Shown: positions 5,558-36,644 of the stretch, one piece after another
Numbering within the stretch: position 1 is the stretch's first letter
Layout of the letters: every line of letters begins with the position of its first letter
From: a virus
IMG/VR virus record: IMGVR_UViG_3300010311_000419
Length of the DNA stretch: 45,147 nucleotides
Reading direction: 5' to 3' (one strand)
Position numbers and translations under genes: made by a program
The notes under the pieces: generated by a model
The model's input: the letters and a program-made list of their open reading frames with translations, nothing else
Told to the model about the DNA's origin: nothing
Databases searched by the model: none

Positions 5558-5588
5558 TATTTTCTCTCCCTTCAAAAATAAAGTAGAA

Positions 5589-5606
5589 CGCGGGTTTTAC
5601 CCCGCG
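5589..5606 (-). terminator. Hairpin plus T-rich tract just downstream of the major tail protein gene
   Basis: CGCGGG-TTTTAC-CCCGCG stem-loop followed on the minus strand by a T-rich run. Confidence 0.35.
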
Positions 5607-5608
5607 CT

Positions 5609-6403: not shown

Positions 6404-6407
6404 TTTA

Positions 6408-7290: not shown

Positions 7291-7294
7291 AACA

Positions 7295-7639
7295 TCACCA
7301 CTTATCCATTACGGTTGTTGTGAATACCTGAGTGCCCGCCGTGATATAGTGTTGCGAAGAAGGGGCCGCCGCATCTGTTCCGGTTGTCTTCTTGAGCGCG
7401 CTCATCAATCGATCGTAATATGCCTGGGCCTGCTCCTGGAATCCGTGCCGCTCATATAACCGGTAAATCACGTAAGACGTTTCGTGTATCTCTTTGAGGG
7501 TTGTGTCTGTGATTGCAATAATCGAGTTGATAAACGTCTCCGCTTCCGAGAGCAGCACGGTAAGAATCGAGTCGTCAGATTCCGTCAAGCTGTTAATCAA
7601 GTCTTCCGGGAACTTAGCCTTTAGTTGCGCCACTGTCAT
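7295..7639 (-). CDS. Putative head-tail connector / adaptor
   Basis: Gene order only; first gene after capsid-gene terminator. Confidence 0.35.
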   Translation of the reverse strand: MTVAQLKAKFPEDLINSLTESDDSILTVLLSEAETFINSIIAITDTTLKEIHETSYVIYRLYERHGFQEQAQAYYDRLMSALKKTTGTDAAAPSSQHYITAGTQVFTTTVMDKW

Positions 7640-7653
7640 ATCCGGTCACCTCT

Positions 7654-7687
7654 AAAAAGGACCAGCCGGCATTATACCGGCGTGGCC
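7654..7687 (-). terminator. Imperfect hairpin plus T-tract downstream of the major capsid gene
   Basis: GGACCAGCCGG / CCGGCGTGGCC arms with TTTTT following on the minus strand. Confidence 0.3.
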
Positions 7688-7689
7688 TA

Positions 7690-8751
7690 TTAGGATATCG
7701 TGCTTGTAAATACTTTGCACGCGTTAGCGTTATACAAAATCGGGAGAGGATAGGAGAGTAGCGATATAGTCTTCGTGTGCCCTTCGGATGCTTCGGGAAT
7801 CTTCTCTTTGACGATGACATCGGTCATAATTGGGGATCCATCGGGTTTGAGTTCAAAGTCGACAACCGCGCCGTAGCCGAGAGCAAACTGGCTTGTATTG
7901 AGCAGAATCATCTTTCCGCTTGTGCTTGAGGATTCGGGGATATACTTCGTCGCAACGTTCGAATCGTTCGCGTAGGTCCCGGAATACACGTATATCTCTG
8001 GGATTCCAAACTCTTGGAACTCACCGATGAACCGAACGCTCGGCGAATTAAACCGAGGCTTAAGCAACCCAAAGTTGTAATTGTTTTTGCTGATATACTT
8101 TTCTGTTTTTGAGTGGTTCATGATCCCGCGCGCAAGATACGGGGTCATCAGGATAACGTTCGGCCACATCCCGAGTGTTTGCGCGAACGTCTCGCATTCC
8201 GCGCCGATAAGTTCGAGCGGGTCCGTTGAACTGCTCACCGCGAGTTTCCCGGTTGTGCTGATTCTGTAATCCTGCTCAAATGTTCTTTCAGTCGTTGTGA
8301 AGCTGATTTTCCCAGTCAGGAGGAGTTGTCCGAACATATACTCGATACGGCGTTTAAGCCGATCGCGAAGCCCCTGGAGTTTAACGCCGTAGGAATACGC
8401 GAAGGAACGCGTGATATCCGAAGCGTCATTCAGGTTTGCAAGTTCATTCAGATTAAACGAAGAAGTCAGAGCTTCCGTCGATTCGATGCTGTCGCGTTCG
8501 AAGATTTGGGGCGGCGTCACGGTGATGTCTTCGGCGGTGTTCTTGTAATCAATATTGCGCGCCGGATCGTCACGTAATCCGATCGAGCTCATCTTGCCGG
8601 AAGTGGTGATCATTCGCCATTTGATCGTGGTCGTCGGGCTGAATATTTTACTGGATCCAAGCATTTGCGTGAGAAAGAACGGCTCATCCCTCATCTGTTG
8701 CAATACTTTAGTCAATAACGTAGTCCAGGTAGCACTGTTGAACGTCGCCAT
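7690..8751 (-). CDS. Major capsid protein (lambda E-like position)
   Basis: 353 aa ORF after scaffold and a small decoration-sized ORF, followed by a terminator. Confidence 0.55.
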   Translation of the reverse strand: MATFNSATWTTLLTKVLQQMRDEPFFLTQMLGSSKIFSPTTTIKWRMITTSGKMSSIGLRDDPARNIDYKNTAEDITVTPPQIFERDSIESTEALTSSFNLNELANLNDASDITRSFAYSYGVKLQGLRDRLKRRIEYMFGQLLLTGKISFTTTERTFEQDYRISTTGKLAVSSSTDPLELIGAECETFAQTLGMWPNVILMTPYLARGIMNHSKTEKYISKNNYNFGLLKPRFNSPSVRFIGEFQEFGIPEIYVYSGTYANDSNVATKYIPESSSTSGKMILLNTSQFALGYGAVVDFELKPDGSPIMTDVIVKEKIPEASEGHTKTISLLSYPLPILYNANACKVFTSTIS

Positions 8752-9278: not shown

Positions 9279-10195
9279 TTCACCTCCACGCCGGCGAACG
9301 TTTTAGCCAGCTTGTCAATGTCTACCCCTTTAGGCGCTTCTTCGGAATCGGATAATCCTACGTAGCGTTTCGTCGGGACGGTTGTCGATGTTTCGAGGAT
9401 TGATTCGAAGAACTTCTCTTGATTAGGATCCTCGACCAGTTTATCTGCCAGCATCTTCACAAGCGCGGGGGCCTTGCTCTTCGCGAGCCAGCCGTCGCGC
9501 CATTGCTGCACGTGCATCGTGTGTTTCTCTTTTTGCATTGTTTCCAGATCATCGATGAGCTTCTTGATCTGGCCGTCTTTCTCTTTGATCTGCTCTTCGA
9601 ATTGCTTGGTAAGCGTTTCCTCTAACTGTTTGTTTTGCGTTTTCAAGGCTGCGAGTTCTTCTTCGTAGCGCTTGACAACAGCAAAATCGTTCGCGTTTTC
9701 TGCCATTCTCTTAGCTCCTTTGTCGTTGTTTCCATAGGCCGTCTCTATGTCAATCTCTACATTCCAGGTTATCAAGTTGTGTTCTCCATCCGCGTCTGTT
9801 AGCGTGATACGTTGCATTCCGGGTTGTGCCGGGATAGGCGTCAGCGATATCTCCAAAAGTGTTGGCCCTTCCTCTTGCCCGGTCGTCTTGTTGATATAGT
9901 TGTCGTGATAGGCAGGGCTCAAGAAGTCATACCGGCCGCTTTTGATTAGCTTCTCACCTTCCGAAGTGAACTCGATATCCGCGGCGAGCCCCTCATCTTT
10001 TATCCGCAATGCCTTAATCTCCCCGTACTTGCCACCTTTGCTCTCGTGAGACAGAAGTACTGGTATCGGATACGGCACAATCTTCCGGTCGAGATTCTTC
10101 TTGAGTTGTTCCGCGATTCTCTTCGAGTGTTCAACCCTGCCGTATCGAGAATCGTAGAAGGTTTGGAAAGGCAGGATCAGAACTTCTTTTGTCAC
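9275..10195 (-). CDS. Putative capsid scaffold / maturation protein
   Basis: 306 aa with a long charged coiled-coil C-terminal half (EELAALKTQNKQLEETLTKQFEEQIKEKDGQIKKL), upstream of capsid genes. Confidence 0.45.
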   Translation of the reverse strand: MTKEVLILPFQTFYDSRYGRVEHSKRIAEQLKKNLDRKIVPYPIPVLLSHESKGGKYGEIKALRIKDEGLAADIEFTSEGEKLIKSGRYDFLSPAYHDNYINKTTGQEEGPTLLEISLTPIPAQPGMQRITLTDADGEHNLITWNVEIDIETAYGNNDKGAKRMAENANDFAVVKRYEEELAALKTQNKQLEETLTKQFEEQIKEKDGQIKKLIDDLETMQKEKHTMHVQQWRDGWLAKSKAPALVKMLADKLVEDPNQEKFFESILETSTTVPTKRYVGLSDSEEAPKGVDIDKLAKTFAGVEVK

Positions 10196-12360
10196 ACCGT
10201 TTTCACCTCCTGTGATTCGGTTAATAGGTTTGCAATTATGTCTTTGATCGCGTTCAATTGCGCTTCTTCCCCATGTTCCTCGGCGTGTTTACGGTATCCT
10301 TCGCTGTCGTACTGGTTGCTTAGGATCATCCGCACGGCCTCGTCTACGGTGTTGTACAGGTATTCCTCGGGATACACGTCGGTTGCTCCCCAGAAGTGAT
10401 GGATGATCGGTTTAATTCCTTTGCTCTCCGCTTCGAGGATTGCCATGCCGGTCCCTTCGGTGTAGGATGTCGAGAGGAAATAGTTCTTATCTTCGAGGAA
10501 GGCGTTCATGTCTTTTTGATGCCCTACGAAGTGGATGTTACGTTCCAGCCCAAGCTGTGTGATGATGTGTTTGAGGTATTGCCAGAGCCGGATGTCTTGG
10601 AGTTCGCCAGCCCAGAATAACTCGTATCCGGGATCCAACCGCGCGAGCTGGTTCATTATCTGCACCATCATCATCGGGTTCTTCAGCGCGTTGATATGCC
10701 CGGCGAATGCGATCTTGTATCCGGTCCCGTGGTTACCGTAGCTGAATCGTTTGGTATCCACGCCCATCGGCACGAGAGCGACTTTATCCGCAGGCACGAT
10801 CTCTTTCGCCAGCTCATAGATATGATCCGCTTCGAACATCACACAATCGGCGTTGTTGTAGTTGATTTGTTTCAGGAATCCGTTGTAAGCCTCGTAAGCG
10901 TGTACGCGGATGATGGTCTTCTTTGCCGGATACTTGTTTGTCCCGGCGATCGCGAGTTCGTTTCCGAATTCGTACCAAACGAGATCGGCCCAGTCGATGT
11001 ACTGCTTCGCGTGTTCGATGTCACTTACCACCGCCGTCTGCACGATATAATCCCGCGCGAGTTCGTGTCGCACGCCGTGGAGGAATGAAGCGAGGCCCGG
11101 CGCGACGATGATTGCGATCTTCTTGCGTTTGGTAGCCATCTCATGATTGGCTTCACCGTACAACCGAGAGTAGTAAGGCGAGAGATTGATCCGTTCGTGA
11201 TCGGCGAGCTTAAGAATAGCCGGTTCGAAGCGTTTTAAGACATTTGCGTGTTGCGTTTGCGCGAGTGTTCTTATCAATTCATCCGCCGCCCACGTCGTGA
11301 TCGTCGTGGCCTTCACATCCCGCAGAATCACGAGCGCCCTGTCGATCATCCCCGTCTCCGCTGCCGCCTTGGCGCCGATGATCAGCGCAACGTCGTGATA
11401 CTTCTCGTATTGAAGCGTGAACAGACACCCGCTCTTGTTGAACGCCGCTACCTTTGCCGTGTACGTCTCAAAGGCTTTTAAGGCGTTAAGCGGCTGCTTG
11501 AGCGCGTTAAACATCAACTCCTCAACGATGTAAGAGTCCGGGCAATCAGGAGCCATTGACCGCGCCGCCGAGATGCACGCTCTGATGATGTCTTGTTCGT
11601 TGTATTCGAGCGCTTGCAACCCGAGAAGCACGAAGATGTCGTGCATCATTACGGGGATGGCCTTCGTCATTCTTACTTCCGAAAGCAACGCCTTGCCGTA
11701 CGTATAGGCTTCTTCTTTCTGCTCACACACGAGAAGCGTTTTGTAGTATTGCGCCTTGTAGTAGAGCCGCTCCATCCCGCTGAGTGTGTCGCCTTGGAGT
11801 ATCTTTTCCATCATCGACAGGAGCCGCTTGCGCTTCTTCTCTCTGAGCTCCGGCGTCCACTGATAACCGTAATGGTTTGATATCAGGTTCGTGGTGATGG
11901 TCTCTTGTTCATATTGCGGATGGTTATGCACCGCATACTTGTAGGAGATTGTGCCGCGGCGGAATATTCGAGGGAGTGTGAGCGAGTCTTGGAGTGTGTC
12001 CGTGATGATGTTGCGCGTAATCATCATAACCGTCTTAACTTCCGGTGGCTGAGATTCAAGCAATGGCCGGAGTTCTTTTTGCGCCTCTTCCGTAAGTTCT
12101 TCATCGCCGTCGTAGATGAACACCCAGTCGCCCACACATAAAGCGATCGATGCGTTCCTGGCCTCACTGAAATCTTCTTTCCATTCGTGGTCATACAGTT
12201 TGATCTTTTGATCGTTGAACCCGATGATGATCTCTTTTGTCCGATCAGCAGAACCGGTATCAAGTATCACTATCTCATCCGCGATTGGTAGAACGCTTCG
12301 GAGCGCTCTTTCTATGTTCTTCTCCTCGTCCCGTACTATCATTGCAACGCTAACTAACAT
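10192..12360 (-). CDS. Two-domain glycosyltransferase (N-terminal GT-A/family-2-like, C-terminal GT-B/family-4-like)
   Basis: N-terminus MIVRDEEKNIERAL..ILDTGSAD and YDGDEEL (DxD-type); C-terminus FVGHQKD...EGTGMAILEA resembles the GT4 E-x7-E region; 722 aa. Confidence 0.65.
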   Translation of the reverse strand: MLVSVAMIVRDEEKNIERALRSVLPIADEIVILDTGSADRTKEIIIGFNDQKIKLYDHEWKEDFSEARNASIALCVGDWVFIYDGDEELTEEAQKELRPLLESQPPEVKTVMMITRNIITDTLQDSLTLPRIFRRGTISYKYAVHNHPQYEQETITTNLISNHYGYQWTPELREKKRKRLLSMMEKILQGDTLSGMERLYYKAQYYKTLLVCEQKEEAYTYGKALLSEVRMTKAIPVMMHDIFVLLGLQALEYNEQDIIRACISAARSMAPDCPDSYIVEELMFNALKQPLNALKAFETYTAKVAAFNKSGCLFTLQYEKYHDVALIIGAKAAAETGMIDRALVILRDVKATTITTWAADELIRTLAQTQHANVLKRFEPAILKLADHERINLSPYYSRLYGEANHEMATKRKKIAIIVAPGLASFLHGVRHELARDYIVQTAVVSDIEHAKQYIDWADLVWYEFGNELAIAGTNKYPAKKTIIRVHAYEAYNGFLKQINYNNADCVMFEADHIYELAKEIVPADKVALVPMGVDTKRFSYGNHGTGYKIAFAGHINALKNPMMMVQIMNQLARLDPGYELFWAGELQDIRLWQYLKHIITQLGLERNIHFVGHQKDMNAFLEDKNYFLSTSYTEGTGMAILEAESKGIKPIIHHFWGATDVYPEEYLYNTVDEAVRMILSNQYDSEGYRKHAEEHGEEAQLNAIKDIIANLLTESQEVKTV

Positions 12361-12365
12361 CTTTT

Positions 12366-13271
12366 TTATGCTCCTTTCGCATAGATTCTCGCGGATTCGA
12401 AGAGCGGCGCACAGTAGCGCAGCATCTCCTCGCGAGGGATAGATGGTACACGGATAAAACTCGGCAATTGGTTGTTTAGATAACTGGAGGCAACCGTCAT
12501 GAAGTAGTTACGCAGGTATTCCGCACGGTTAATCGTTGCATTTCGCGGCATATACACGCTGTCCTCAAAATGATCGACGATATATCGAAGGATCGCGTTG
12601 ATCGCTCGAATGCGCCGTTCAATCCCGTGCGTATGGCTTGATTTGTGTATGCGATAGTGGCGGAATGGTTTGTTGATCGCTTTGGTACGCAAGCCCATTC
12701 GAAGATAGTGCATGGTGTTGATCGTGTCCACGTCGCATCCGAGATACTTGATATAACCGCGGCGCTTTAAGAAGGACGCTCTCATCAATCCTTTCGAAGA
12801 GATCACACTCGACCCGTGCCGTTCGAAGGTTCGCCGTACCGCGTCTTTCGCTTCATAATCCTCAACCGGCCACATCTCCGTCGAGCGGCCGTCTTCGTAA
12901 TGCACGCAGCAACCTGAGTACACGTAATCTATCCGCGGATCAGATTCGATCAGCTTCACCGATTCCGCTATCGTGTCCGGTTCGAGCCAGTCGTCCGCGT
13001 CGTAGAAGTAAATGTACTTGCCTTTCGCCTCTTCTATCATTCGATTTGTGCCTTCCAACACGCGGCCCGAGTTCATATCCGATCGAATGATCTTAATGCG
13101 ATCGGCATAACGGTTCAGCACATCGCCGGATTCGTCGGTCGAGCAGTCGTCGTACACAATGATCTCGAGATTGCGGTGTGTCTGGTCAAGCATCGAATCG
13201 ATGCACCGTGCGAGATACCGCCCGTAGTTGTAGTTATTGATCCCGACCGTGACTAACGGCGCCGTTTCCAT
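12366..13271 (-). CDS. Family-2-like glycosyltransferase
   Basis: VGINNYNYGRYLARCIDSMLDQT...IIVYDDCSTDES and YFYDADD motifs typical of GT-A fold. Confidence 0.65.
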   Translation of the reverse strand: METAPLVTVGINNYNYGRYLARCIDSMLDQTHRNLEIIVYDDCSTDESGDVLNRYADRIKIIRSDMNSGRVLEGTNRMIEEAKGKYIYFYDADDWLEPDTIAESVKLIESDPRIDYVYSGCCVHYEDGRSTEMWPVEDYEAKDAVRRTFERHGSSVISSKGLMRASFLKRRGYIKYLGCDVDTINTMHYLRMGLRTKAINKPFRHYRIHKSSHTHGIERRIRAINAILRYIVDHFEDSVYMPRNATINRAEYLRNYFMTVASSYLNNQLPSFIRVPSIPREEMLRYCAPLFESARIYAKGA

Positions 13272-15503: not shown

Positions 15504-16715
15504 TCACCACGCCGTGTATTCGGATTTTGTGCCCGTGTAGAGGCCATAACGCATCGCGTCCATCAAGTGATCCTGAAACTTGACCGGTTCATCGAGCACG
15601 CGCCCGTCTTTGTCTTCCCGCCATTTGTACGATAGCAATTCTTTGATCAGGTTCGAGCTCTCCGAGTAGACGCGGAGCTTTCGGCTCTTTGCAAAGTCAA
15701 TCCCTTTGAGCACGTCTTTCTTGGCCGGCATCGCGGTTAAACCCGCCGCCCTCAGCTCTTGGATACGGTTCGGTTCGGCGCTGTCACAATAGATTCGGCC
15801 CGATACGTTGAGTTGCTTTATCTTGTCGATCAGTTCCGCGTTCGTGAGGTGCGTCTGATAGATTAGTTCCCGCAGGTATATCTCGCCGTCGTACTCGCGT
15901 ATCTCTACGAGCGCCGTCGGGTTGTTGAACCCGAAGTCAAGCCCGTACGTAACCGTTCCGGCTTTCGGCATCTCGTTTGTGAGCCGCCAGTTATTGTAGA
16001 TAAGCCCTTTTGGGGATCCCCATTCTCCCAGCGCGTATATCTGGTAATACGTCGGGTCTTGGTCTTTAAGCCCTTCAATCACTTGCTTATAGTCGTCTCC
16101 GAGGAATCGGTTGTCTTTGTACGTTGTCTTGAGGATTGAGGCGTTCTCGACGCGTTGATCGAAGAACCTCTTCTTGAGCCAGCTATACTCGGATACGGGG
16201 TTAAACGATAAGATGATTTGGTTCGGATAGTTTGATCTGGTTCGGAGCCGAAGGTCAAGCTGCATAAAGTCTTCCGGCGTTATCTCGCTCGCCTCTTCGA
16301 TCCAGATGTCCGTTATGCCGGTGATGGATTTGAGCTTCTCCACGTCATCAAGGCCAGTGAAGAGTATCTGATTCTCGGAGATGCCGCGCACTTGTAGCGT
16401 GATGTCAAGCTCCGTCTTGTCGATCTTGAATAGCGGGTTAAGCTTCCATCCGCTTATAACGCTTCGCAAGAGGTCATACGTGCTGTGCCGATTGGTTCGC
16501 GCAACCTTCCGCACGACGAGGTATCGGTGTCCGCGTTCTTTGAGTGTTCGGTAGATGATCTTTTGCGCGACAAAGTGGCTCTTACCCGATCCGGCTCCGC
16601 CGTAGTAGATTTCGTAGCGCGTTTGATTTTTGAGATATGGAATGTATGCGTCGTTGAATTCTTGTGCTTTGCTCTTGAATCGAATATCTATAACAGTGTC
16701 ATTCGCCATCATCAT
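15504..16715 (-). CDS. terL: Terminase large subunit
   Basis: Walker A YYGGAGSGKSHF near N-terminus; 403 aa; follows terS. Confidence 0.85.
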   Translation of the reverse strand: MMMANDTVIDIRFKSKAQEFNDAYIPYLKNQTRYEIYYGGAGSGKSHFVAQKIIYRTLKERGHRYLVVRKVARTNRHSTYDLLRSVISGWKLNPLFKIDKTELDITLQVRGISENQILFTGLDDVEKLKSITGITDIWIEEASEITPEDFMQLDLRLRTRSNYPNQIILSFNPVSEYSWLKKRFFDQRVENASILKTTYKDNRFLGDDYKQVIEGLKDQDPTYYQIYALGEWGSPKGLIYNNWRLTNEMPKAGTVTYGLDFGFNNPTALVEIREYDGEIYLRELIYQTHLTNAELIDKIKQLNVSGRIYCDSAEPNRIQELRAAGLTAMPAKKDVLKGIDFAKSRKLRVYSESSNLIKELLSYKWREDKDGRVLDEPVKFQDHLMDAMRYGLYTGTKSEYTAW

Positions 16716-17031
16716 CGAACCCGATCTTGATGAGTATATTGCCCCCGTGATCGATGTCGAGGTTATCGCGTTGCCCGAGATATTGTTTGCCTAACCATAT
16801 GAGTATCGTCCGGTCACCGCTTTCCGCTGCTTTCCATTGAAGCCTGCGGAGGCTTGCACGACCACGTTGTCGCTCTTGGTTATAGAGTTCATTAAACTTT
16901 GCGTCGCGTTGGAGCGTGTCAACGGAGAGTTCGAGAACCGCAGCGATCTCTTCTTGCGTACAATGTATCACCGATAGTTTCTTCACGAGTTCGTAGTCTA
17001 TTTTTTTTCTCGGTCTTGCCATCTGTATCAC
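16699..17031 (-). CDS. terS: Terminase small subunit
   Basis: 110 aa, basic N-terminus with HTH-like segment, directly upstream of terL. Confidence 0.55.
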   Translation of the reverse strand: MIQMARPRKKIDYELVKKLSVIHCTQEEIAAVLELSVDTLQRDAKFNELYNQERQRGRASLRRLQWKAAESGDRTILIWLGKQYLGQRDNLDIDHGGNILIKIGFDDDGE

Positions 17032-17058: not shown

Positions 17059-18216
17059 TTACTCTCTGGTTGCTTTCCTCCCTGCGAAATCTTCCCACCG
17101 CTTTACGATCACGTCGCAATACCCTGCATCAAGTTCCATCATGTAGCACTTGCGATTGAGCTGCTCGCAAGCGATGAGTGTTGAGCCGGAGCCGCCGAAG
17201 GGGTCAAGCACCAGCGTGTTGCTCATGGAGCTGTTCATAATGGGGTACGCCAAAAGCGGGATGGGCTTCATGGTTGGGTGATCGCCGTTTTTCTTAGGCT
17301 TGTCGAACTCCCAGATGGTGGTTTCCTTGCGTCCGCTGTACCACTGGTGCTTGCCGCTTTTCTTCCAGCCGTATAGCACAGGCTCATGCTGCCACTGATA
17401 CGGGGAGCGCCCCAGCACCAGCGACTGCTTTTTCCAGATACAGCAGCCGGACAAATAAAAACCGGCATCCGAAAAGGCTCTCCTGAAATTCAGCCCTTCG
17501 ATGTCGGAATGAAAAACATATATGCTGGCGTCGTCTGCCATGACTGCTTCGGTATTCTGGAACGCTGCCAACAGGAAGCTGTAAAAAGCATCGTTTGCCA
17601 TGTTGTCGTTCTTGATTTTCCCGGCACTGCCTTCATAGTTCACATTGTAGGGCGGGTCGGTCACGACCAGATTCGCCTTCTTGCCATCCATCAACCGCTC
17701 CACATCTTCACGCTTCGTACTATTTCCACAAAGCAAGCGGTGATCGCCAAGTATCCACAAGTCGCCGGCCTTGGTAATTGGTTCTTCCGGTGTCTCGGGC
17801 ACATCGTCCTCGTCCGTCAAACCGGTGTTCATATCCAAATCCATGCCAAAATCCGCTAAGTCAAATCCCAAAGCTTTGAGCTCCGACAACTCCCACTCGT
17901 TCGCCAACATGTCAAAATCCCAATCGCCCGCCATGCCACGTGGAGCATTATCCACAAGGATGAATCGCTTGCGTTGCTCCGCCGTTAGATTAGATGCCTT
18001 GACGATCCAACCGTCCGGGACATCTTTCATACCCAGCTCTTTGATTGCGCGATACCTCATATTGCCGCCGAGTATAATACCTTCATCATCAACAACTATT
18101 GGGCGGAGCGTCATAAACTCCGGATCACGTTTGATTGATTCGCACAATTTTTTGAACGCTTCATCCTTAATTATTCTTGGGTTCTTCGAATTAGCTTTGA
18201 TGTCGGATAAATTCAT
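17059..18216 (-). CDS. ParB-like nuclease domain fused to DNA methyltransferase (N6-A / N4-C class)
   Basis: N-terminal ParB-like segment; VTDPPYN (motif IV) and DPFGGSGST (motif I); GGAGG RBS. Confidence 0.8.
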   Translation of the reverse strand: MNLSDIKANSKNPRIIKDEAFKKLCESIKRDPEFMTLRPIVVDDEGIILGGNMRYRAIKELGMKDVPDGWIVKASNLTAEQRKRFILVDNAPRGMAGDWDFDMLANEWELSELKALGFDLADFGMDLDMNTGLTDEDDVPETPEEPITKAGDLWILGDHRLLCGNSTKREDVERLMDGKKANLVVTDPPYNVNYEGSAGKIKNDNMANDAFYSFLLAAFQNTEAVMADDASIYVFHSDIEGLNFRRAFSDAGFYLSGCCIWKKQSLVLGRSPYQWQHEPVLYGWKKSGKHQWYSGRKETTIWEFDKPKKNGDHPTMKPIPLLAYPIMNSSMSNTLVLDPFGGSGSTLIACEQLNRKCYMMELDAGYCDVIVKRWEDFAGRKATRE

Positions 18217-26602: not shown

Positions 26603-27340
26603 TTAAAAAAGCCTCTGCTGTCTATCTTCTCTGTCAAACCTTTGCTCAAGTTCGAATATCGTCTTGTCGCGCGTGAAAGTGTTACACCTATCATTAAAAT
26701 CGCTTCCCCACTTCAGCAGAAGTTGCCATAAATAATTATAGTTTTTCTTGAGAAGGCGCAAAGAACCAAGCCTTTGCTTGTTGCAAAACCAGCACCCACC
26801 GCGAGCCAAATCGGTATATATAGGCGACACAAGATCAAGCGATTCGCATATCGCCATCGCTTCCCGCTCGGTTATTTTATAATCAACTAATGGCGCTTTT
26901 ATGTTTCCAACAATCTTACCGTGCCTTTTTGGCTCATCGTAGGCATAGCCTATATACTGAATGCCTTTGTTGGTTTGATGTTTTTTTAAGACCTTCTGTT
27001 TTAATTCGCTTACACACCAGCTTCCTATTATGTTTGGAAACCCATACATTTTGCCTGGGTATTTACCTCTTTTTCTTATCCTGTGGTAAATTTCCTCGAA
27101 CGTATAATCAGAACTAACACGCTCGACCTCTATTCCATATCGATCCAGAATAATTTTATCCGCTTTGTTTTTGAAGTCAACCATAGGCGGTAAATCCGCT
27201 GGTATATCCTTTGTAGCCCAGATTTCCGCGTGTATGATTCTTGTTAATGGCAGTTTATTCTGATGTATAACTTCTAACATTGCAAGACTGTCTTTTCCGT
27301 AACTTATTGATGCTACATACTCCAGTAACTCGTCGACCAT
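26603..27340 (-). CDS. PAPS-reductase-like (PP-loop ATP pyrophosphatase family, DndC-like) protein
   Basis: PP-loop-like SYGKDS near N-terminus and C-terminal GGCWFC; AGGAG RBS before second ATG at 27340. Confidence 0.6.
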   Translation of the reverse strand: MVDELLEYVASISYGKDSLAMLEVIHQNKLPLTRIIHAEIWATKDIPADLPPMVDFKNKADKIILDRYGIEVERVSSDYTFEEIYHRIRKRGKYPGKMYGFPNIIGSWCVSELKQKVLKKHQTNKGIQYIGYAYDEPKRHGKIVGNIKAPLVDYKITEREAMAICESLDLVSPIYTDLARGGCWFCNKQRLGSLRLLKKNYNYLWQLLLKWGSDFNDRCNTFTRDKTIFELEQRFDREDRQQRLF

Positions 27341-27649
27341 GGTAGGGTTGCTCCTCGTCAAAAATTATCCCCGCCCGCGGGGGTGGTGCGAGCGGGGAAC
27401 CAATGTGGTGTTTTTATTTCAAGAAAAAGGGGTCGAAAAATACCCCCTGCCGGTGTCCCGCCAGCAGAGGGCAAACGGAGGTATCACGTGTAGAAAGGAG
27501 GAGTTTTATCGGGGCGTTCGTTAGTCGCAATTAGTCGCAATTGGTGGTTTCGTCATTTTTTCTAGAACCTTAACCCGCCTCGGCCAGCGTTTCAGGTTTT
27601 CTATCGCTTCCGGAGAATACTCCTCTTCGAGGGGTTTAGAATATAATAT

Positions 27650-29005
27650 TCAAATTTGTTTTTCTTCTGTTTGTATTTTTTCTGATTTTCTGTTAAAGTT
27701 TATTTTCAAAATAGAACGCTGCCAACCATCGCCGTGTTGAAGCATTAGTGCCTTTTTAGTGCTACAACTTATTTCCTTCCCATTTTTATCCCTGATATGA
27801 ACTGTTCCGGCGCTTTTCACCGCGATTGCGCGTCCGGTTATGCCTTTGACTTTTACAAAATCGCCAGTCATGAATCCTTCTTTGGTCTTGTTGCGACTGC
27901 GATGACCTCTTGCAAAGCCATGTTTGTCCGGTATAATCGTTTGTCTGTTTCCACGGCCCATTATCTTGTTTATTGTTGCGTATTGTGTTTTAACATCAAT
28001 GTGCTTATCGCACAAACCAACACAAGCAGCATCAAAATAATGTTCTTTTGGCAACCCTTGATTGTGCCTGTTGAATTTCGTTCTCCCGCCAGAAGCGAGC
28101 TCAACGTCTCCAAATTCCTCTTTGAGCTTGTTGCATAAAACCCATCGGGTTGTGTTTACGCTTGCAGCATCTTTAAGGGTCTGTTTTGCGTCCTTTATCG
28201 CCTTTTCGAAATTTGCGATCATGGTTTTGGCTTTATCGCCTTTTTGTTTTGATAAGTATTCTATATATTCTTTCGGCATCATATTGGACTTCTCTTGATT
28301 GCATTTAACGCAAGCGATTGCGAGATTATCAATGCGGTCCGTGCCGCCTTTGCTTTTCGGAATCATGTGTTCAATTTCAAGAGGAACTTTTTCAGCACCA
28401 CAATAAGCGCATTTCCTACCGTATTTTTCGAGCAAGTATTCTTTCACTTCATACCCGAATAACTTTCCATGTTGATATTCAACGCCAGACACTTCGGGGT
28501 TTGCTAACTTTTGCATATCGAACTTCACGTGTTCAACTGATACAATTTGAATAGGCGCTAATGACTTCATTTTTCTAACTAAGTTAAGAGTTGAGTATAC
28601 TCTTGAAAGCATAGAGGGTGCGAAACGCCCTTTCTTTGTGCTGTTTTTTCTATTGGCCCAACGAGCTGGTCGATACCGTGTGTTTCTGTTTCTGCGGCCA
28701 CGGCGCATTTGCGACCTGTGTTTAAGGTTATCCGCGACCGTTATTTTATGCTTCACTATTCCGGCATAACGTAAAAGTAATTTGTCTTCTTTCTCTTGAA
28801 TAACAGCGATTCCTGTTTCTTTACTTCCGGGATCAATCTTTATTTGTAATGGCTCAACCTTACAATCCTCAACTTCGTTTTTTAGGCGAATCGTAAACGG
28901 AGTGTATTTGTGTATAACTGCTTTTTTGTTTTCGAGTAACTTTCTTGCTCTCTTCTCGGAGCAAGGCATCAAAGGTTCTTTGTGTTTGTTAAGTACGAAT
29001 ACCAT
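27650..29005 (-). CDS. iscB: IscB-type RNA-guided nuclease (PLMP, RuvC-I, bridge helix, HNH, RuvC-III)
   Basis: MVFVLNKHKEPLMP start; IKIDPGSKETGIAV; RSQMRRGRRNRNTRYRPARW; CAYCGAEKVPLEIEHMIPKSKGGTDRIDNLAIACVKCNQEK; KEHYFDAACVG; ~451 aa; AAGGAG RBS. Track start at 29071 rejected. Confidence 0.8.
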   Translation of the reverse strand: MVFVLNKHKEPLMPCSEKRARKLLENKKAVIHKYTPFTIRLKNEVEDCKVEPLQIKIDPGSKETGIAVIQEKEDKLLLRYAGIVKHKITVADNLKHRSQMRRGRRNRNTRYRPARWANRKNSTKKGRFAPSMLSRVYSTLNLVRKMKSLAPIQIVSVEHVKFDMQKLANPEVSGVEYQHGKLFGYEVKEYLLEKYGRKCAYCGAEKVPLEIEHMIPKSKGGTDRIDNLAIACVKCNQEKSNMMPKEYIEYLSKQKGDKAKTMIANFEKAIKDAKQTLKDAASVNTTRWVLCNKLKEEFGDVELASGGRTKFNRHNQGLPKEHYFDAACVGLCDKHIDVKTQYATINKIMGRGNRQTIIPDKHGFARGHRSRNKTKEGFMTGDFVKVKGITGRAIAVKSAGTVHIRDKNGKEISCSTKKALMLQHGDGWQRSILKINFNRKSEKIQTEEKQI

Positions 29006-29351
29006 ACAGGTATCACTCCTTTTATTTACAGCCCGAAGGCTTGCGCTTACGCGCCTTGTAACGCGAGGCATATGCCTCGTCTCTCCTCGACAATGTTATA
29101 ATGCCTTTTTACGAGCCAATCACTTGCGTACCTTCCGTGTTTACAATCGCATGTTTAGACTGGTTCGACAGAGCAGCCGGCTGGAGAAGCACCTGCTGGT
29201 GTCATGAGCAAAATAACGTAGGTCTCTAAGACCTTAGTCTGGACCCGCTTTGTAAATAGATAAGTTACAAACCGCTACACATAAGGTAAAATTAATCCGT
29301 GATTTATGTTACAGCCAAAAAGCAGCGGGCTTGAATGGCTTAACTCAACGG
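29006..29351 (-). ncRNA. Candidate omega-RNA / tracr-like scaffold for IscB
   Basis: Non-coding ~350 nt between array and iscB; consecutive hairpins including CGAGGC-AUAU-GCCUCG, GCGC-GUAA-GCGC (GNRA) and AGCC-UUCG-GGCU (UNCG); 29256-29264 is the exact reverse complement of 9 nt of the array repeat. Boundaries approximate. Confidence 0.5.
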
Positions 29352-29516
29352 GTTGCACCTTATCTATGGTTGGGGCGGGACGTATGTTACGGCGAAGATC
29401 TTTGTATCGACGACGTGCGTTGCACCTTATCTATGGTTGGGGCGGGACAATGGTTAGGCCGTTCCTGGAGTCGATCAGGGATTTTAGTTGCACCTTATCT
29501 ATGGTTGTGGCGGGAC
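29352..29516 (-). CRISPR. Mini CRISPR-like array: three 30-bp repeats, two spacers (37 and 38 bp)
   Basis: Repeats at 29352-29381, 29419-29448, 29487-29516 (third has one mismatch); plus-strand repeat GTTGCACCTTATCTATGGTTGGGGCGGGAC; spacers GTATGTTACGGCGAAGATCTTTGTATCGACGACGTGC and AATGGTTAGGCCGTTCCTGGAGTCGATCAGGGATTTTAG. Strand inferred from iscB. Confidence 0.7.
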
Positions 29517-29866
29517 GACAAGTTATTGTATGATCCCGGCTCGAGGTTATGGCGCTCGGTGCTTGTCAGTGAGCTGGCTGAATCTAAAGAGTAAGAGTAA
29601 GTTATCGTTTGGACGTATCGATTATACCTCAAAAGCATAAAAAAGCAAGCGGCGATTATACAAGAAAAAGCGAGATATACTTAATATGTATATCCCGCCT
29701 GTGTGTAGCGTAATCAGAAGATTCGATGCGGTTATTGTTGGTTTCAATCGTAATGAGAAATCGGCTTTATTTCGCGTTAAAGGCTGAATTCAAGGGGTTT
29801 GGAAGAATTTGCCCATTAACGATACACCACGTGCCGTTTTCAGGCTTCAGGGGTTTGAAATCTTAG

Positions 29867-30454
29867 TTATTCTTTTGATCGGGCTGTAACAAAAGCAGGC
29901 GTTGAAACTTCGCACGAAACAGAACAATTATTCGCGTACCGGTAAGATGGATTTCTGCTCGAGAGATCGCGCAATGCCTTTTGTTGCTCAGATGTGAGGT
30001 GAAATAAAGTAATCATGTTTGAAATCGGGAAGTATATGATCTTGGCACCGCTAAATTCGATGGATGGATAATCTTTTTCTTGGTCTCTCACCCTTATGGA
30101 TACAGGTATTTCCAAGTTTCGCAAATAGTTGCCGTATGCCTCGCCCTTGCCTTCATCTACAAACACAAGAAATACTGGGATGTTGTACTTTTCTGATATA
30201 GTCTTGTACTGGATGTAATGTTTAAAGTCGATACCTTGATCTGGATACATTTGCCGTCTTGCCTTACTCTTCACGTCCAGAATCAGCAAATCTTTCTTGT
30301 CTGGAGATGCCAGAATCCGGTCAAACGGATGAGCACCCGGCCATACTGGTTCGTATGGGATCATTTTCTTTCTGCTTTTGATATACTCATCCACCAATAG
30401 CTCTCCAAAATCACCTTTCTTGGTTTGAATTTTCTCGCGAAAAAGTTTAATCAT
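29867..30454 (-). CDS. PD-(D/E)xK-family nuclease (restriction-endonuclease-like), putative
   Basis: GDFGELLV ... PFDRIL ... LILDVKSK matches E / D / (D/E)xK spacing; ATG at 30454 is 5 nt after the upstream stop. Confidence 0.45.
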   Translation of the reverse strand: MIKLFREKIQTKKGDFGELLVDEYIKSRKKMIPYEPVWPGAHPFDRILASPDKKDLLILDVKSKARRQMYPDQGIDFKHYIQYKTISEKYNIPVFLVFVDEGKGEAYGNYLRNLEIPVSIRVRDQEKDYPSIEFSGAKIIYFPISNMITLFHLTSEQQKALRDLSSRNPSYRYANNCSVSCEVSTPAFVTARSKE

Positions 30455-31937
30455 GACACACATCACCAAGCTTTCGCAAGAAATCGGAGCTGTACTTATC
30501 CTCCTTCTCAAATCCAATAAAATAGCGTTTACATTTTGCGGCCGCCAGTAACGTGGAACCTGAACCGGCAAACGGGTCGAGAACCACTTCACCAGAACTG
30601 CTGGAGTTTTTGATTAGATATTCCAATAAAGGCTCCGGCTTCTGGCAATCGTGAACCTTATCTTGCGGGATAGCAAACTCAAGCACGTCGGGAGAAACGG
30701 GGTTGTTCAATTTTCGTTCTTTCCCGTTTGGCATCGTGCAGAACCAGATAATCTCATACTTGGAGGCATACCGTGCTTTGAAATCACACGGCGTGTGGTT
30801 ATTCTTCACCCAAGTGAGCCAGTTATCATGTACTTCAAAGTGTTTGGAGAGGATTCTTTTGAACTCGAAAGCATTTACGCAGCCGCAAAAAACGTAGATA
30901 TGAGCGTTTTCCTTGCATACCCGTTTCAACTCAACGCACAGATCATCGAAATACTCCAAGATACCCAACGAATCATCAAACTCAGGGTTGCCAGTTCTCC
31001 GGGAGGATTTGAAATCCACCCCATAAGGCGGGTCGGTGATCACAACATCAACTTCGTTATCAGATAATGATTTGATACCTTCCAAAGCATCCACACCAAA
31101 CTTGGCCTTGTTTTTCACTCCTTCGTTGAGCTGCTTGATAACGGATTCCAACCTTTTATCGCTGTACTCACCTTTGTGAATTGCCTCGAACAACTCAGCT
31201 TTCTTCTCATCCGAGATCTCCGGAGAAAGTTGCTCTTCCATCATTTTGAGCTGGCTGCGGATGCCTTTGTAGTATTCAACCTTTTCGTCCAGTTTTTTCT
31301 TGGCAGCTTTGCATCTCTCTTCTACGCAAAACCATACCATCACTTTCATCTGGTCATCCGCTTCTAATTCATACAATCCTGACGTCCGAAACCACCCCTC
31401 GGTGAAATCGCACGTTGTAATACCGCGTTCATTTTTTGGTGCAAATGTACCAAAGTTTGGTACACGGCCCTCCTGAAAAGTTTTGGCCAAAATCAGAATC
31501 TCTGCACCAATTTTTGAACGCAATGTTACGTGATTTTTTACTTTTTCCCGGCTCCACCCAATCCGCTCGCCGATCTTCTCTTGCGTGGTCCCATCATCTT
31601 GGAGCTTTGCGATCAAATCGAGCCAATCAAACAAATCCATCGGCGAGTAGGTGTCCTCGTCTTGGTTCCCGTTTATGGCGAGGGCATAGGGATCGTGGCC
31701 TTCCTCATACACAACGCACGGGACCTTATCGATGTTTAGTTCTTTAATCACGGCAAACCGATGATTGCCGTCCGCGATCAAGAATGAACCGTTGCTCTTG
31801 ACGACCGAAAGCGGGCGAGCCGGATTATAGCCGGATTCCGTGATCCGTTTCTTTATCTTCTCCAACGTGCTCGGCCGGATATCTCGAACCGGAAATGGTT
31901 TTAATCTTGTTACTTCGATCAATTCAGTAGCGTACAT
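30447..31937 (-). CDS. ParB-like (DGQHR-like) domain fused to DNA methyltransferase; paralog of 17059..18216
   Basis: N-terminal LIADGNHRFAV; VITDPPYGV (motif IV) and LDPFAGSGST (motif I); 496 aa. Confidence 0.8.
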   Translation of the reverse strand: MYATELIEVTRLKPFPVRDIRPSTLEKIKKRITESGYNPARPLSVVKSNGSFLIADGNHRFAVIKELNIDKVPCVVYEEGHDPYALAINGNQDEDTYSPMDLFDWLDLIAKLQDDGTTQEKIGERIGWSREKVKNHVTLRSKIGAEILILAKTFQEGRVPNFGTFAPKNERGITTCDFTEGWFRTSGLYELEADDQMKVMVWFCVEERCKAAKKKLDEKVEYYKGIRSQLKMMEEQLSPEISDEKKAELFEAIHKGEYSDKRLESVIKQLNEGVKNKAKFGVDALEGIKSLSDNEVDVVITDPPYGVDFKSSRRTGNPEFDDSLGILEYFDDLCVELKRVCKENAHIYVFCGCVNAFEFKRILSKHFEVHDNWLTWVKNNHTPCDFKARYASKYEIIWFCTMPNGKERKLNNPVSPDVLEFAIPQDKVHDCQKPEPLLEYLIKNSSSSGEVVLDPFAGSGSTLLAAAKCKRYFIGFEKEDKYSSDFLRKLGDVCHD

Positions 31938-32020: not shown

Positions 32021-32236
32021 TCACCTCGACAATTGTCGCCATGCCTCGTACTCCTTCCGTAGATTTTCGGAATCCCCACCGAGCTTCTCCAATGCTGCAA
32101 GCACGCGTTCTGACAGCTTGAGCTGATAACCGACCATCAGATTGTGAGCCGTTATCCCGTGAACACCGGCAATACGCGCGAACTCGATCGTGCTGATTCC
32201 TTTCTGCACGAGAAACGTTTTGATTGGATTTTCCAT
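32021..32236 (-). CDS. Small HTH DNA-binding protein
   Basis: ISTIEFARIAGVHGITAHNLMVG HTH-like; first gene of the minus-strand accessory operon. Confidence 0.5.
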   Translation of the reverse strand: MENPIKTFLVQKGISTIEFARIAGVHGITAHNLMVGYQLKLSERVLAALEKLGGDSENLRKEYEAWRQLSR

Positions 32237-32257
32237 CTTTTTGCCCCCTCACTATAA

Positions 32258-33124
32258 TTTGTAAGTATATTATATCACATAGCATCACTCAACGCAAAAG
32301 GCTACAAAACACGAACCGGCAAACCGTGGGCGCAAACATCTATCTATGAGATGCTCCATAACAAGCGCTATGCCGGAATCTATACCTACCGCGGGAAGAA
32401 GCTCGGAAACAACAGCCACGCCAAACGCACGGATACGATAGAGGTTCCCGGCGTGATCCCGCCTATCGTATCGCCCGAGACATTCGAGCGCGTCAAGGCC
32501 CGATGGCGAACCAACATCACGCGCGCGCAAACCAAACACGCGCACATCTTAACCGGGATCATCTTCTGCGGCGTATGCGGCGCGCCGATGACCCTCACGG
32601 GCGGGCGTTATCCCAAGTATCAATGCTCGCGATGGAAGAATAACCGTGATACCCAATACGTGAGCGCAGGCGCGAAGACGGCAGATAAACGCGTGATCGG
32701 ATACGTTAAGAATATCATTCTCAACGAGCCCGACTTCGAAAAGATCGCCGAGAACTATAACAAGGAACACGCGCTATCAGATATGGCGCTCAAAAGCAAG
32801 GTCGAGGCCATCACCGCGGAACTCGCCGAAGTGAACTCCGGAATCGATAACGCCGTGAGCGCGATACTCAAAGGGATACTATCTGCCAAACTTGAAGAAG
32901 AAGTGAAGCGGTTGGAACTCAGAAAGAAGAAGCTGAACGAAGACCTCTTGAACCTCTCGCAAAGCACCGGGCGGCGCATCACGACCGAAGAGGTAAGAGG
33001 CATATACACGCGCTACGAAGAGATGCTGAACAGCGACGTAACCGAGCAACGTGCTCTTGTGCTTGATCTGATCGAGCGTGTAGAGGTATTCCCGGAAGGA
33101 TTTATGAACATCGCGCCGAAATAG
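32258..33124 (+). pseudogene. Large serine recombinase (integrase), N-terminally truncated: catalytic domain absent
   Basis: Frame open from stop at 32255-32257; ..KGYKTRTGKPWAQTSIYEMLHNKRYAGIYTY.. recombinase domain, zinc ribbon IFCGVCGAPMT...KYQCS, C-terminal coiled coil; no room upstream for the ~140-aa catalytic domain. Confidence 0.55.
32269..32297 (-). promoter_or_regulatory. Candidate promoter for the accessory operon
   Basis: Minus-strand TTGCGT (32297-32292), 17 bp, TATAAT (32274-32269); GAGGGGG RBS before ATG at 32236. Confidence 0.4.
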
Positions 33125-35220: not shown

Positions 35221-36306
35221 TCAAAGTTTGTTTAGAAAAGCAGATAAAGGTGCAGTTGGATTTTTGCAAGTATAACCAGTGTTATATATCCCTATGTATC
35301 GATAATGAAGAGGTATCATCACAACTTTGCCGGATGGTGTGAGTACTCCTCCATACCATTTGCCTCCTGCCGTTGAAGTATCTGGCCCTTGTGTGTATGT
35401 GTTAGCAACTGGATCATATATCCCTATGTATTGATAGCTATAAGGTATCATCACAACCTTGCCAGATGGCGTGAGTACTCCTCCAATCCATTTGCCTCCT
35501 GCCGTTGTAGTATCTGCCCCTTGTGTGTATGTGTCCGCTACTGGATCGTATATCCCTATGTATCGATAATGAAGAGGTATCATCACAACTTTGCCGGATG
35601 GTGTGAGTACTCCTCCATACCATTTGGCTGTTGCCGTTGAAGTATCTGGCCCTTGCGTGTATGTGTTCTCAACCGGGTCATATATCCCTATGTATTGATA
35701 GCTACCAGGTACCATCACAACCTTGCCGGATGGTGTGAGTACTCCTCCAATCCATTTGCCTCCTGCCGTTGAAGTATCTGGCCCTTGTGTGTATGTGTTA
35801 GCAACTGGATCGTATATCCCTATGTATCGATAATTATGAGGTACCATCACAACCTTGCCGGATGGTGTGAGTACTCCTCCATACCATTTGGCTGTTGCCG
35901 TTGAAGTATCTGGCCCTTGCGTGTATGTGTTCTCAACTGGATCGTATATCCCTATGTATTGATAGCTACCAGGTACCATCACAACCTTGCCGGATGGTGT
36001 GAGTACTCCTCCAATCCATTTGCCTCCTGCCGTTGAAGTATCTGGCCCTTGTGTGTATGTGTTAGCAACTGGATCATATATCCCTATGTATTGATAGCTA
36101 TAAGGTATCATCACAACCTTGCCGGATGGTGTGAGTACTCCTCCATACCATTTGGATGTTGCCGTTGAAGTATCTGGCCCTTGTGTGTATCCTTGTGCGG
36201 TTGATGATAAAGCTATATTGTGTGCTATTTCATCAACAGCTTGAGCATCATAGATGCTTAGATTGTCATACCTTTCATTCAGCGAGTATTTATTCAGCTT
36301 GTACAT
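35221..36306 (-). CDS. Tandem-repeat protein, putative receptor-binding / tail fibre component
   Basis: About eight ~44-aa repeats (YTQGPDTSTAxxKWxGGVLTPSGKVVMxP..YxYIGIYDPVxNT); ATG at 36306 overlaps upstream stop as TAATG. Confidence 0.5.
   Translation of the reverse strand: MYKLNKYSLNERYDNLSIYDAQAVDEIAHNIALSSTAQGYTQGPDTSTATSKWYGGVLTPSGKVVMIPYSYQYIGIYDPVANTYTQGPDTSTAGGKWIGGVLTPSGKVVMVPGSYQYIGIYDPVENTYTQGPDTSTATAKWYGGVLTPSGKVVMVPHNYRYIGIYDPVANTYTQGPDTSTAGGKWIGGVLTPSGKVVMVPGSYQYIGIYDPVENTYTQGPDTSTATAKWYGGVLTPSGKVVMIPLHYRYIGIYDPVADTYTQGADTTTAGGKWIGGVLTPSGKVVMIPYSYQYIGIYDPVANTYTQGPDTSTAGGKWYGGVLTPSGKVVMIPLHYRYIGIYNTGYTCKNPTAPLSAFLNKL
35270..36190. repeat. Near-identical 132-bp tandem DNA repeats (alternating variants, ~264-bp higher-order unit)
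   Basis: Stretches such as 35280-35350 and 35550-35620 are identical; limits approximate. Confidence 0.7.
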
Positions 36307-36644
36307 TATATAGTGACCTCTTTCCCGCTTATCATCACATATACTTTGCTGGCAGTCTCGCAATACCCTTTAATCCTATCTCCGGCAATTAAAACTTGAT
36401 CCATAAACGGAATCGTTATAGTGTTTTCTCCGCCTACTGCAGGTAGCGGATAATCCTTCACCAGATAATAGTCTGTACTCCCACTGTAAATAACAAGAGA
36501 TACTTTTTTAGCTGCTGTGTCTATGTTGCAGAACGTGACCGCCTTTATGAACCTCAACTTGCCAGAAGGCACTGCGTCTGCATCGATATATCCCAATGTG
36601 TCTGGTAAAAAACCTATCGCGAATCGTTTTGCATCCGTTGCCAC
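36306..36644 (-). CDS. Hypothetical tail-fibre-region protein (112 aa)
   Basis: ORF track; coupled to downstream repeat protein. Confidence 0.4.
   Translation of the reverse strand: MATDAKRFAIGFLPDTLGYIDADAVPSGKLRFIKAVTFCNIDTAAKKVSLVIYSGSTDYYLVKDYPLPAVGGENTITIPFMDQVLIAGDRIKGYCETASKVYVMISGKEVTI

Follow-up and report, generated by a model that had tools for sequence, protein, structure and literature searches.

A near-obligate pairing of adenine methyltransferase and predicted Hjc-like nuclease genes in phages: a possible restriction-modification-like module

The virus record IMGVR_UViG_3300010311_000419, whose entire 45,147 nucleotides are referred to here as the window, is an approximately complete 45-kb phage genome with independent assemblies of 44,925 and 45,121 bp. 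On its minus strand lie two overlapping genes, the first for a ParB-like DNA methyltransferase and the second for a small protein that appears to be a nuclease of the PD-(D/E)xK type. The strongest fact about this pair is the near-obligate, order-preserving and coupled linkage of the nuclease family to three families of adenine methylase. We read the pair, with a probability of roughly 45%, as a restriction-modification (R-M)-like module in which the action of the nuclease is gated by methylation. The features on which the argument depends, all on the minus strand, are as follows.

30447..31937, minus strand: predicted ParB-like/N6-adenine DNA methyltransferase fusion (beta-class N6_N4_Mtase), 496 amino acids (aa), an ATG-started open reading frame (ORF)
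29867..30454, minus strand: predicted Hjc-like PD-(D/E)xK endonuclease, 195 aa, of an unmodelled phage family; TAA stop at 29867-29869
30447..30454, minus strand: 8-nt overlap of methylase stop and nuclease start, ATGATTAA, a signature of translational coupling
30269..30403, minus strand: putative nuclease catalytic core (E18 at 30401-30403, D45 at 30320-30322, D60 at 30275-30277, K62 at 30269-30271)
31515..31928, minus strand: predicted ParB N-terminal (CTPase-fold) and ParB helix-turn-helix (HTH) region of the methylase, residues 4-141, from a match to Spo0J
31023..31034, minus strand: methylase motif IV, DPPY, residues 302-305, the amino-methyltransferase catalytic motif, of adenine-N6 type by sequence and codon check
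30558..30581, minus strand: methylase motif I, LDPFAGSG, residues 453-460, S-adenosylmethionine binding, from sequence

In the initial annotation of this DNA, the small ORF was taken to begin 5 nt past the methylase stop codon. Instead, the nuclease ATG (30452-30454) lies within the final codons of the methylase (...C ATG ATT AA), which gives an 8-nt overlap between the genes. The overlap becomes 17 nt if an in-frame ATG at 30463 is taken, as it is in public gene calls, which give a 198-aa product. The tight coupling that was meant holds even more strongly given this overlap.

Linkage across the family was counted in lineages, defined as nuclease sequences collapsed at 90% identity; loci L004 and L015, and 4 of 66 metagenome loci, were left out as too short upstream. 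An adenine methylase lies directly upstream of the nuclease in 53 of 54 lineages, the sole exception being L028. The 53 linked lineages (43 at 70% identity) comprise 45 with an MT-A70 methylase, five with a Dam methylase and three with an N6_N4 methylase. A metagenome scan returned 66 loci, 62 of them assessable, and in all 62 the methylase ORF ends at the nuclease start; the partner is of the MT-A70 type (DPPW) in 43, N6_N4 (DPPY) in 15 and Dam (NPPF/NPPY) in four. Among the IMG/VR viral loci (L016-L030), 14 of 15 have a methylase upstream (12 MT-A70 and two Dam, PF05869), with none at L028. A methylase is likewise upstream in every one of L001-L003, L005-L014 and L035-L039, the last of these groups consisting of long-contig loci that all carry MT-A70. 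Of the 62 methylase ORFs paired with the nuclease in metagenomes, 56 have the motif D/N-PP-W/Y/F and the remaining six are cut by contig ends; judged by this motif IV, the partners all appear to be adenine-N6 types. A ParB-like DGxxR N-domain is found in 24 of 45 full-length partner methylases. In the called genes of other loci the spacing between methylase and nuclease runs from -26 to +6 nt, so that the two overlap or abut, and no neighbour besides the methylase is conserved across loci. The coupling of nuclease and methyltransferase posited in the initial annotation is thus near-universal across the family.

The family to which the methylase belongs varies among the nucleases. A homologue 46% identical to the window nuclease follows an N6_N4 methylase just 22% identical to that of the window, and another, at 45% identity, is preceded by an MT-A70 methylase. 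In a rough neighbour-joining tree, the Dam- and N6_N4-linked nucleases form a few clades inside the MT-A70-linked majority, which argues that the methylase family has been replaced several times while adjacency was kept. Repeated replacement with adjacency and overlap retained therefore suggests selection on ‘any adenine methylase plus this nuclease’. An apparent methylase-nuclease fusion, P0057, was set aside, since its linker is rich in Arg and Ala and it looks like a frameshifted gene call.

The nuclease contains the three motifs pointed out in the initial annotation for an ORF of about 195 aa: GDFGELLV at residues 14-21 (with E18), PFDRIL at 43-48 (D45) and LILDVKSK at 57-64 (D60 and K62). 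Among 149 diverse members of the family the catalytic positions are retained almost without exception (E18 in 143, D45 in 147, D/E60 and K62 in all 149). Invariant or near-invariant positions comprise K13, G14, G17, E18, Y34, H42, D45, D/E60, K62, K64 and R67, followed by Y70-P-D-T-G74, Y83, F98-V-D100, Y107-G108, Y129-P130, I-I-Y-F-P143 and M147; the window protein has Q at position 73, where 114 of 117 relatives have T. Secondary structure elements occur in the order helix 9-28 (bearing E18), strand 46-49 (D45), strand 56-63 (D60 and K62), helix 77-90 and strand 94-100, an order that, in the model, fits the canonical alpha-beta-beta-beta-alpha-beta PD-(D/E)xK core. Residues ~105-152 form a family-specific beta-rich extension, while residues 171-195 are poorly conserved and have low pLDDT (predicted local distance difference test) values. 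A first structure model, built from eight sequences with a pLDDT of 58, resembled a generic PD-(D/E)xK nuclease and ranked restriction enzymes top. It was replaced by a model from a deep alignment, for which the ranking was reversed in favour of Hjc, so that the predicted three-dimensional core is Hjc-like. Matches in the BFVD viral structures were weak and unannotated (TM-score ≤ 0.55), with none close. The fold comparison proposed in the initial annotation, which had allowed that the small ORF might have no nuclease fold, therefore returned a predicted nuclease fold with an intact active site.

Assignment of the nuclease to a family by sequence failed in Pfam, PHROGs, NCBIfam, PADLOC and PDB, except for a 21-residue match to HamA (E=0.011). 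No Pfam model, that of Hjc (PF01870) included, matched the window protein at E≤0.1. Among the 149 members there were weak matches to models of the PD-(D/E)xK clan (NERD 9, UPF0102 9, PDDEXK_5 7, DUF4365 4, Hjc 3, Mrr_cat 1); the three relatives that touched PF01870 did so weakly, at 1.3e-4 at best. Likeness to any known restriction-enzyme family was tested for and was absent in the library models. A word-indexed search gave only 7 close clusters. Run against 1.84 billion cluster representatives, a profile of the ORF matched 830 at E≤1e-3, of which 629 reach E≤1e-10 and 216 reach E≤1e-30; almost all are proteins of 160-200 aa. Counterparts in such numbers mark the small ORF as a conserved gene, not a chance reading frame. 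A second search, with the 149-member alignment, gave 273 clusters; those listed are unnamed or ‘hypothetical’, lack a precomputed Pfam domain and are nearly all of metagenome origin.

The 496-aa protein upstream was described in the initial annotation as a ParB-like methyltransferase fusion, a description borne out by Pfam, PDB and PHROGs. Residues 296-483 match PF01555 (N6_N4_Mtase) at E=6.8e-34, above the gathering score; further matches are to phrog_67 (7e-50), to PADLOC MTase_II (2.6e-40) and, by sequence in the PDB, to N4C/N6A methylases of the beta class. The order of its motifs is that of a circularly permuted beta-class enzyme. At the N-terminus, the match is to the ParB protein Spo0J (6sdk), over residues 4-141 and at E=2.8e-7; TIGR00180 parB_part (4e-7) and phrog_1033 ‘ParB-like’ (1.9e-12) are also matched, while Pfam ParB_N, at 0.056, falls under that model's cut-off. 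A DGNHR motif occupies residues 56-60 (31758-31772). Possessing both the N-domain and the N6_N4 domain, the protein appears from its sequence to belong to the phage ParB-CTPase-fold/methyltransferase fusion class. A DGxHR-type domain also occurs in partner methylases of other loci, where an hhalign comparison gave E=4.8e-4 with a probability of just 32%.

Variation within the phage population suggests that methylase and nuclease move together. The pair is present at about 98% nt identity in L005, L006 and L034, in different surroundings, and in L005 homology to the window starts just 48 nt before the methylase ATG. Conversely, L047-L052 have flanks near-identical to those of the window (the 71-aa ORF upstream of the methylase is 100% identical in L050, and a PAPS-like gene is 91-95% identical) but carry a divergent allele, in which the ParB part at the methylase N-terminus is ~90% identical in nt, the catalytic half ~69% identical in nt and the nuclease 52% identical in aa. 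A divergent allele between near-identical flanks implies that the nuclease was exchanged along with the methylase's catalytic half. Such hot-swapping of alleles is typical of conflict systems. In L050 the methylase (2155-4008) is 618 aa long because ~120 residues of the ParB-HTH and linker region are duplicated in frame (NEDTYAPMDLFDWLDVIGRLQDEGLTQEKIGE... twice), as if two methylase alleles had recombined and left a scar.

The pair lies inside an island of low GC content (41-46%, compared with about 50%) that separates an integrase remnant from the cI/cro switch. An island in the lysogeny region is the usual place for prophage accessory and defence genes, and the position is compatible with superinfection exclusion. 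In other lineages the pair is mostly found within co-directional early genes, often directly before a replisome organiser, DnaB or primase gene, or 0-5 kb before TerS/TerL.

In the reading we prefer, the 195-aa protein would be an active PD-(D/E)xK endonuclease with an Hjc-like minimal core, and the cutting half of a two-gene module. The N6-adenine methyltransferase, which in this phage has a ParB-like DNA-loading domain, would be made first and would mark DNA. Ribosomes terminating on the methylase would translate the nuclease by virtue of the 8-nt overlap, so that the nuclease would never be present without the methylase, and it would cut DNA lacking the mark. We infer that the nuclease is active, that methylation blocks rather than directs cleavage, and that the biological target would be the host chromosome in lytic growth, or incoming competitor DNA when the module is expressed from a prophage. 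Near-obligate linkage would be expected, because the nuclease would be harmful, or useless, without methylation, and both the methylase-first order and the overlapping or abutting spacing fit a logic of protection before cutting. Cassette mobility, allele swapping, the island position and the presence of RusA in the same phage speak for a conflict module and against an enzyme of core replication. The R-M-type pair put forward in the initial annotation is thus partly supported, by the predicted nuclease fold, the conserved active site and the methylase linkage, which is the genomic pattern to be expected of such a pair or of a modification-linked nuclease.

Several observations weigh against a methylation-gated module. 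At L028 (IMGVR_UViG_3300005264_000159, 5433-8170) the nuclease lacks an upstream methylase; it is preceded by 565 nt of AT-rich non-coding sequence and directly followed by TerS-like and TerL genes. One nuclease family would need specificities in keeping with those of three unrelated methylase families, and its conservation, 35-50% identity over hundreds of clusters, appears unusually high for a restriction enzyme. Ordinary R-M systems, unlike the nuclease family, are abundant in bacteria: the nuclease turned up twice in a pattern-limited scan of 185,579 species genomes, both times on small contigs of metagenome-assembled genomes, and a tblastn search of 50,697 GenBank phage records found nothing. 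The placement of the pair near replication genes or ahead of the terminase also suits a replication or packaging nuclease, and the structures closest to the modelled nuclease are resolvases. The protein might be an Hjc- or RecU-like nuclease that cuts Holliday junctions or branches, clearing replication and recombination intermediates before packaging; this is the main rival, which we consider credible though unlikely. The methylase linkage would then arise because both enzymes act on newly replicated phage DNA and are expressed together, or because they form a physical complex. Another resolvase is not obviously needed, however, because the phage already encodes RusA, YqaJ and RecT.

Obligate linkage would equally be expected if the methylase created the substrate of the nuclease. 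Such a methylation-directed enzyme, either DpnI-like or, on hemimethylated DNA, MutH-like, would cut or nick at sites written by its partner. Its role would lie in timing replication initiation or packaging or, alternatively, in destroying host DNA marked by the phage methylase; cleavage of the P1 pac site is regulated by adenine methylation. The partner methylases, all apparently of adenine-N6 type, suit this idea. The Dam (PF05869) members are presumably GATC-specific, and the GATC-poor carriers L016, L028 and L039, in which the site is nearly absent (zero in the 12.5-kb L028 locus against roughly 30 expected, as estimated from base composition), would be immune to a cutter dependent on GATC methylation. 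MT-A70 members, namely p32 of phage BZS1 and the Tn1549 enzyme, are also described as GATC-specific in passages of PMC7556043. However, GATC occurs 281 times in the window and at normal or high frequency in other carriers, normal in the case of Dam-linked loci; no methyl-reading domain (winged helix, SRA or PUA) was detected; and a methylase-first order with translational coupling suits protection more than the generation of a substrate. We therefore regard methylation-directed cutting as quite improbable. Very improbable is a selfish nuclease like a free-standing homing endonuclease (compare I-Ssp6803I) that would cut cassette-less phage genomes in co-infection, so that the cassette is copied into them, while the methylase shields the carrier. 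Homing endonucleases normally need no methylase, since insertion destroys their site; no pair of empty and filled target sites was found for the methylase-nuclease cassette, and the idea is not fully distinct from an R-M system, since these are themselves known to behave selfishly.

A bolder version of the methylation-gated module, which we hold to be decidedly improbable, would make the ParB-CTPase-fold domain the element that sets protection in an offensive system of self/non-self discrimination. The methylase would be loaded onto the phage's own DNA from a loading site and methylate it in cis in a clamp-like manner, so that only the phage genome would be methylated and the nuclease would destroy DNA that the clamp had not travelled. 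One nuclease could then work with any adenine-methylase domain, because discrimination would depend on loading and not on a matched sequence.

Among known systems, the pair resembles type II R-M systems in that a methyltransferase adjoins a PD-(D/E)xK nuclease in one transcription unit, in its cassette mobility and allele replacement, and in the near-obligate linkage expected when a nuclease is dangerous without its methylase. It differs in that the nuclease family is new, highly conserved and found almost only in contigs of uncultured phages, and in its pairing with three unrelated methylase families, mostly ParB-fused. Viruses can bear R-M systems, as in the chloroviruses, which use them to degrade host DNA. 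To Hjc (PF01870; 1gef, 2wcw, 1hh1) and the D212 nuclease of the fusellovirus SSV1 (2w8m) the window nuclease is just 10-12% identical. In comparison with Hjc it adds the beta-rich C-terminal part and the invariant R67, YPDTG, Y83, FVD, YG, YP and IIYFP, and its family has an obligate methylase linkage that is absent for Hjc. In E. coli dcm-vsr, a small, translationally coupled endonuclease gene overlaps the 3' end of the methylase gene. The window pair is alike in that its small endonuclease ORF starts inside the end of the methylase gene and differs in that its partners are adenine methylases; dcm-vsr shows that coupling to a methylase does not by itself make a nuclease a restriction enzyme.

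The function of phage ParB-CTPase-fold/methyltransferase fusions is left open in passages of PMC12704722 and PMC4738411, which offer ‘perhaps anti-defense’ or ‘modify DNA as part of packaging’ and mention no coupled PD-(D/E)xK partner. A passage of PMC13229309 describes ParB-like proteins that activate another phage DNA-modifying enzyme on duplex DNA. The window encodes a second fusion, without a nuclease partner, which is 28% identical to the 496-aa protein in the catalytic domain.

17059-18216, minus strand: second ParB-like/N6_N4 methyltransferase, 385 aa (phrog_498, 6.8e-159)

Directly upstream of TerS (16699-17031) and TerL (15504-16715), this gene has the classical ‘ParB-terminase’ arrangement and resembles the ‘ParB-terminase large subunit’ methylase loci, as these are outlined in parts of PMC4738411. 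The 496-aa fusion differs from such loci in having an obligate nuclease partner and in lying far from the terminase. No description of a methylase-coupled, Hjc-like phage nuclease was found in the literature. What appears to be new here is an R-M-like pair that joins an undescribed, phage-restricted family of predicted Hjc-like nucleases to adenine methylases that are mostly ParB-fused.

Upstream and downstream of the pair, the signals of a possible transcription unit are as follows.

32021..32236, minus strand: 71-aa ORF, 83 nt upstream of the methylase and on the same strand
32251..32292, minus strand: promoter-like sites, TTGAGT-17-TATACT and TGATATAAT (extended -10-like), consensus matches
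29668..29700, minus strand: terminator-like hairpin, 13-bp stem and T tract, a pattern match ~170 nt past the nuclease stop

The hairpin is likely to be the end of the transcription unit. The 71-aa ORF is preceded by a good promoter-like site and ribosome-binding site of its own; judged by their consensus, the promoter-like sites could drive the 71-aa ORF, the methylase and the nuclease together. Co-transcription with the methylase is plausible because no terminator-like site lies between the two. The initial annotation had called this ORF an HTH regulator in the same operon; the operon is thus plausible, whereas no HTH or other match was found in Pfam, PHROGs, NCBIfam, PADLOC or PDB. The ORF is identical (100%) in L050 and L034, but the closest relatives, L005 and L047, have the same methylase-nuclease pair without it, and in L005 an unrelated 71-aa ORF takes its place. 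It lies outside the conserved unit. A role as an R-M controller (C) protein, an optional feature of type II systems, appears unlikely, as the ORF has no HTH match and is not kept with the cassette.

Beyond the downstream end of the cassette, a short sequence that recurs in relatives, here termed element X, is followed directly by an IscB element or a CRISPR-like array.

29526..29579, minus strand: element X, ~40-54 nt (...CACCGAGCGCCATAACCTCGAGCCGGGATCATA), at the downstream edge of the cassette

Element X flanks the cassette as a direct repeat in L047 (2446-2485 and 4824-4877), is upstream of it in L005 (1445-1484) and L048 (2046-2087), and is downstream in L049, L050 and L052; it may be a recombination or insertion site. 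In the window, IscB occupies 27650-29071, with an array and omega-RNA upstream at 29076-29516 (minus strand). Three 30-nt direct repeats (GTCCCGCCCCAACCATAGATAAGGTGCAAC, minus strand; 29352-29381, 29419-29448 and 29487-29516) are separated by unique spacers of 37-38 nt and followed, after 21 nt, by a HEARO/omega-RNA at 29076-29330 (Rfam RF02033, 96.5 bits). Each repeat has a 3' part complementary at 16 of 19 nt to positions 29256-29274 in the omega-RNA, in the manner of an anti-repeat. To judge from these sequences, repeats, omega-RNA and IscB look like a phage-carried, CRISPR-associated IscB; an exact-match search of IMG/VR with two spacers found no match. The IscB element (window ~27541-29529) is absent in L006 and L051, where the empty site joins ~29529 to ~27516-27541. 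L044 has an IscB that is 80% identical, whereas at this site L049 and L052 have a different one, with 31% aa identity. L034 has four copies of a related repeat (GTTTCAATACCACCATGGTCGACGAGGGAC), arranged as an inverted array about 250 nt beyond the same junction. This polymorphism suggests recent, repeated insertion at one hot spot. At the empty site in L006 (~1973-2077), about 105 nt include a sequence like a tRNA T-arm (GGGTTCGAATCCCTTACCCGC), which may be a tRNA fragment or the remnant of an attachment site.

In gene order, the window runs from tail and lysis genes through a serine-recombinase remnant (plus strand), the 71-aa ORF, the ParB-methylase and the nuclease to the CRISPR-like array, omega-RNA and IscB; then come a PAPS-reductase-like gene, cI-like and cro-like genes, YqaJ, RecT, RusA, SSB, DnaN, the second ParB-methylase, TerS, TerL, portal and head genes. 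The serine-recombinase ORF (32351-33124, plus strand) has no N-terminal catalytic domain: the alignment to the Pfam Recombinase profile begins at position 48, and that to phrog_95 at position 307 of 651. The 71-aa ORF and methylase operon occupies the expected site of the 5' part of the recombinase gene. L034 and L050 lack even the remnant (junction 33096 to 32281), and the phage may no longer be able to integrate. Elsewhere in the window, a 380-aa ORF in the tail-fibre region (35221-36363, minus strand) contains about ten near-identical repeats of ~33 aa (…YQYIGIYDPVANTYTQGPDTSTAGGKWIGGVLTPSGKVVMVP…), and two glycosyltransferase-like genes (722 aa and 301 aa; 10192-13271, minus strand) lie between those for the portal and the major head protein.

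26603-27361, minus strand: PAPS-reductase-like (PP-loop ATPase) gene (phrog_424, 4.8e-28; phosphorothioation protein SspD, 1.7e-11)

This gene may act in a further DNA modification. The unrelated phage contig L036 likewise carries a PAPS_reduct gene (3371-4126), ~0.9 kb upstream of its MT-A70-nuclease pair. The PAPS-reductase-like gene was nevertheless rejected as a third component of the module, since it is conserved in this phage backbone only and is parted from the pair by the terminator-like hairpin and the mobile IscB element. Tetramer counts in the window show strong avoidance of CTAG (3 times against 43 expected) and CATG (58 times against 117), while GATC is frequent (281); this hints at host restriction pressure on CATG. 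An attempt to deduce a recognition site for the pair from palindrome statistics was dropped, as the signal is inconsistent across carriers and is confounded by host restriction.

The locus is a population-level hot spot at which methylase-nuclease alleles, IscB elements and CRISPR-like arrays are traded, and it would be useful for studies of the exchange of conflict genes among phages. The nuclease family is undescribed in Pfam, PHROGs, NCBIfam and PADLOC and has no match in GenBank phage records. If the nuclease is methylation-gated, the pair would represent a widespread mark-and-cut system, numbering at least 830 sequence clusters and almost confined to phage contigs, and would offer a testable role for the phage ParB-methyltransferase fusions, the function of which is open in recent surveys. 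In that case it may also yield a new small DNA-cutting enzyme with a definable relation to N6-methyladenine. Should protection be set by ParB loading, it would give a function to these widespread and unexplained fusions. If instead the nuclease is a resolvase, its near-obligate coupling to adenine methylases would need explaining, and would point to an unrecognised connection between DNA methylation and the way in which replication or packaging intermediates are processed.

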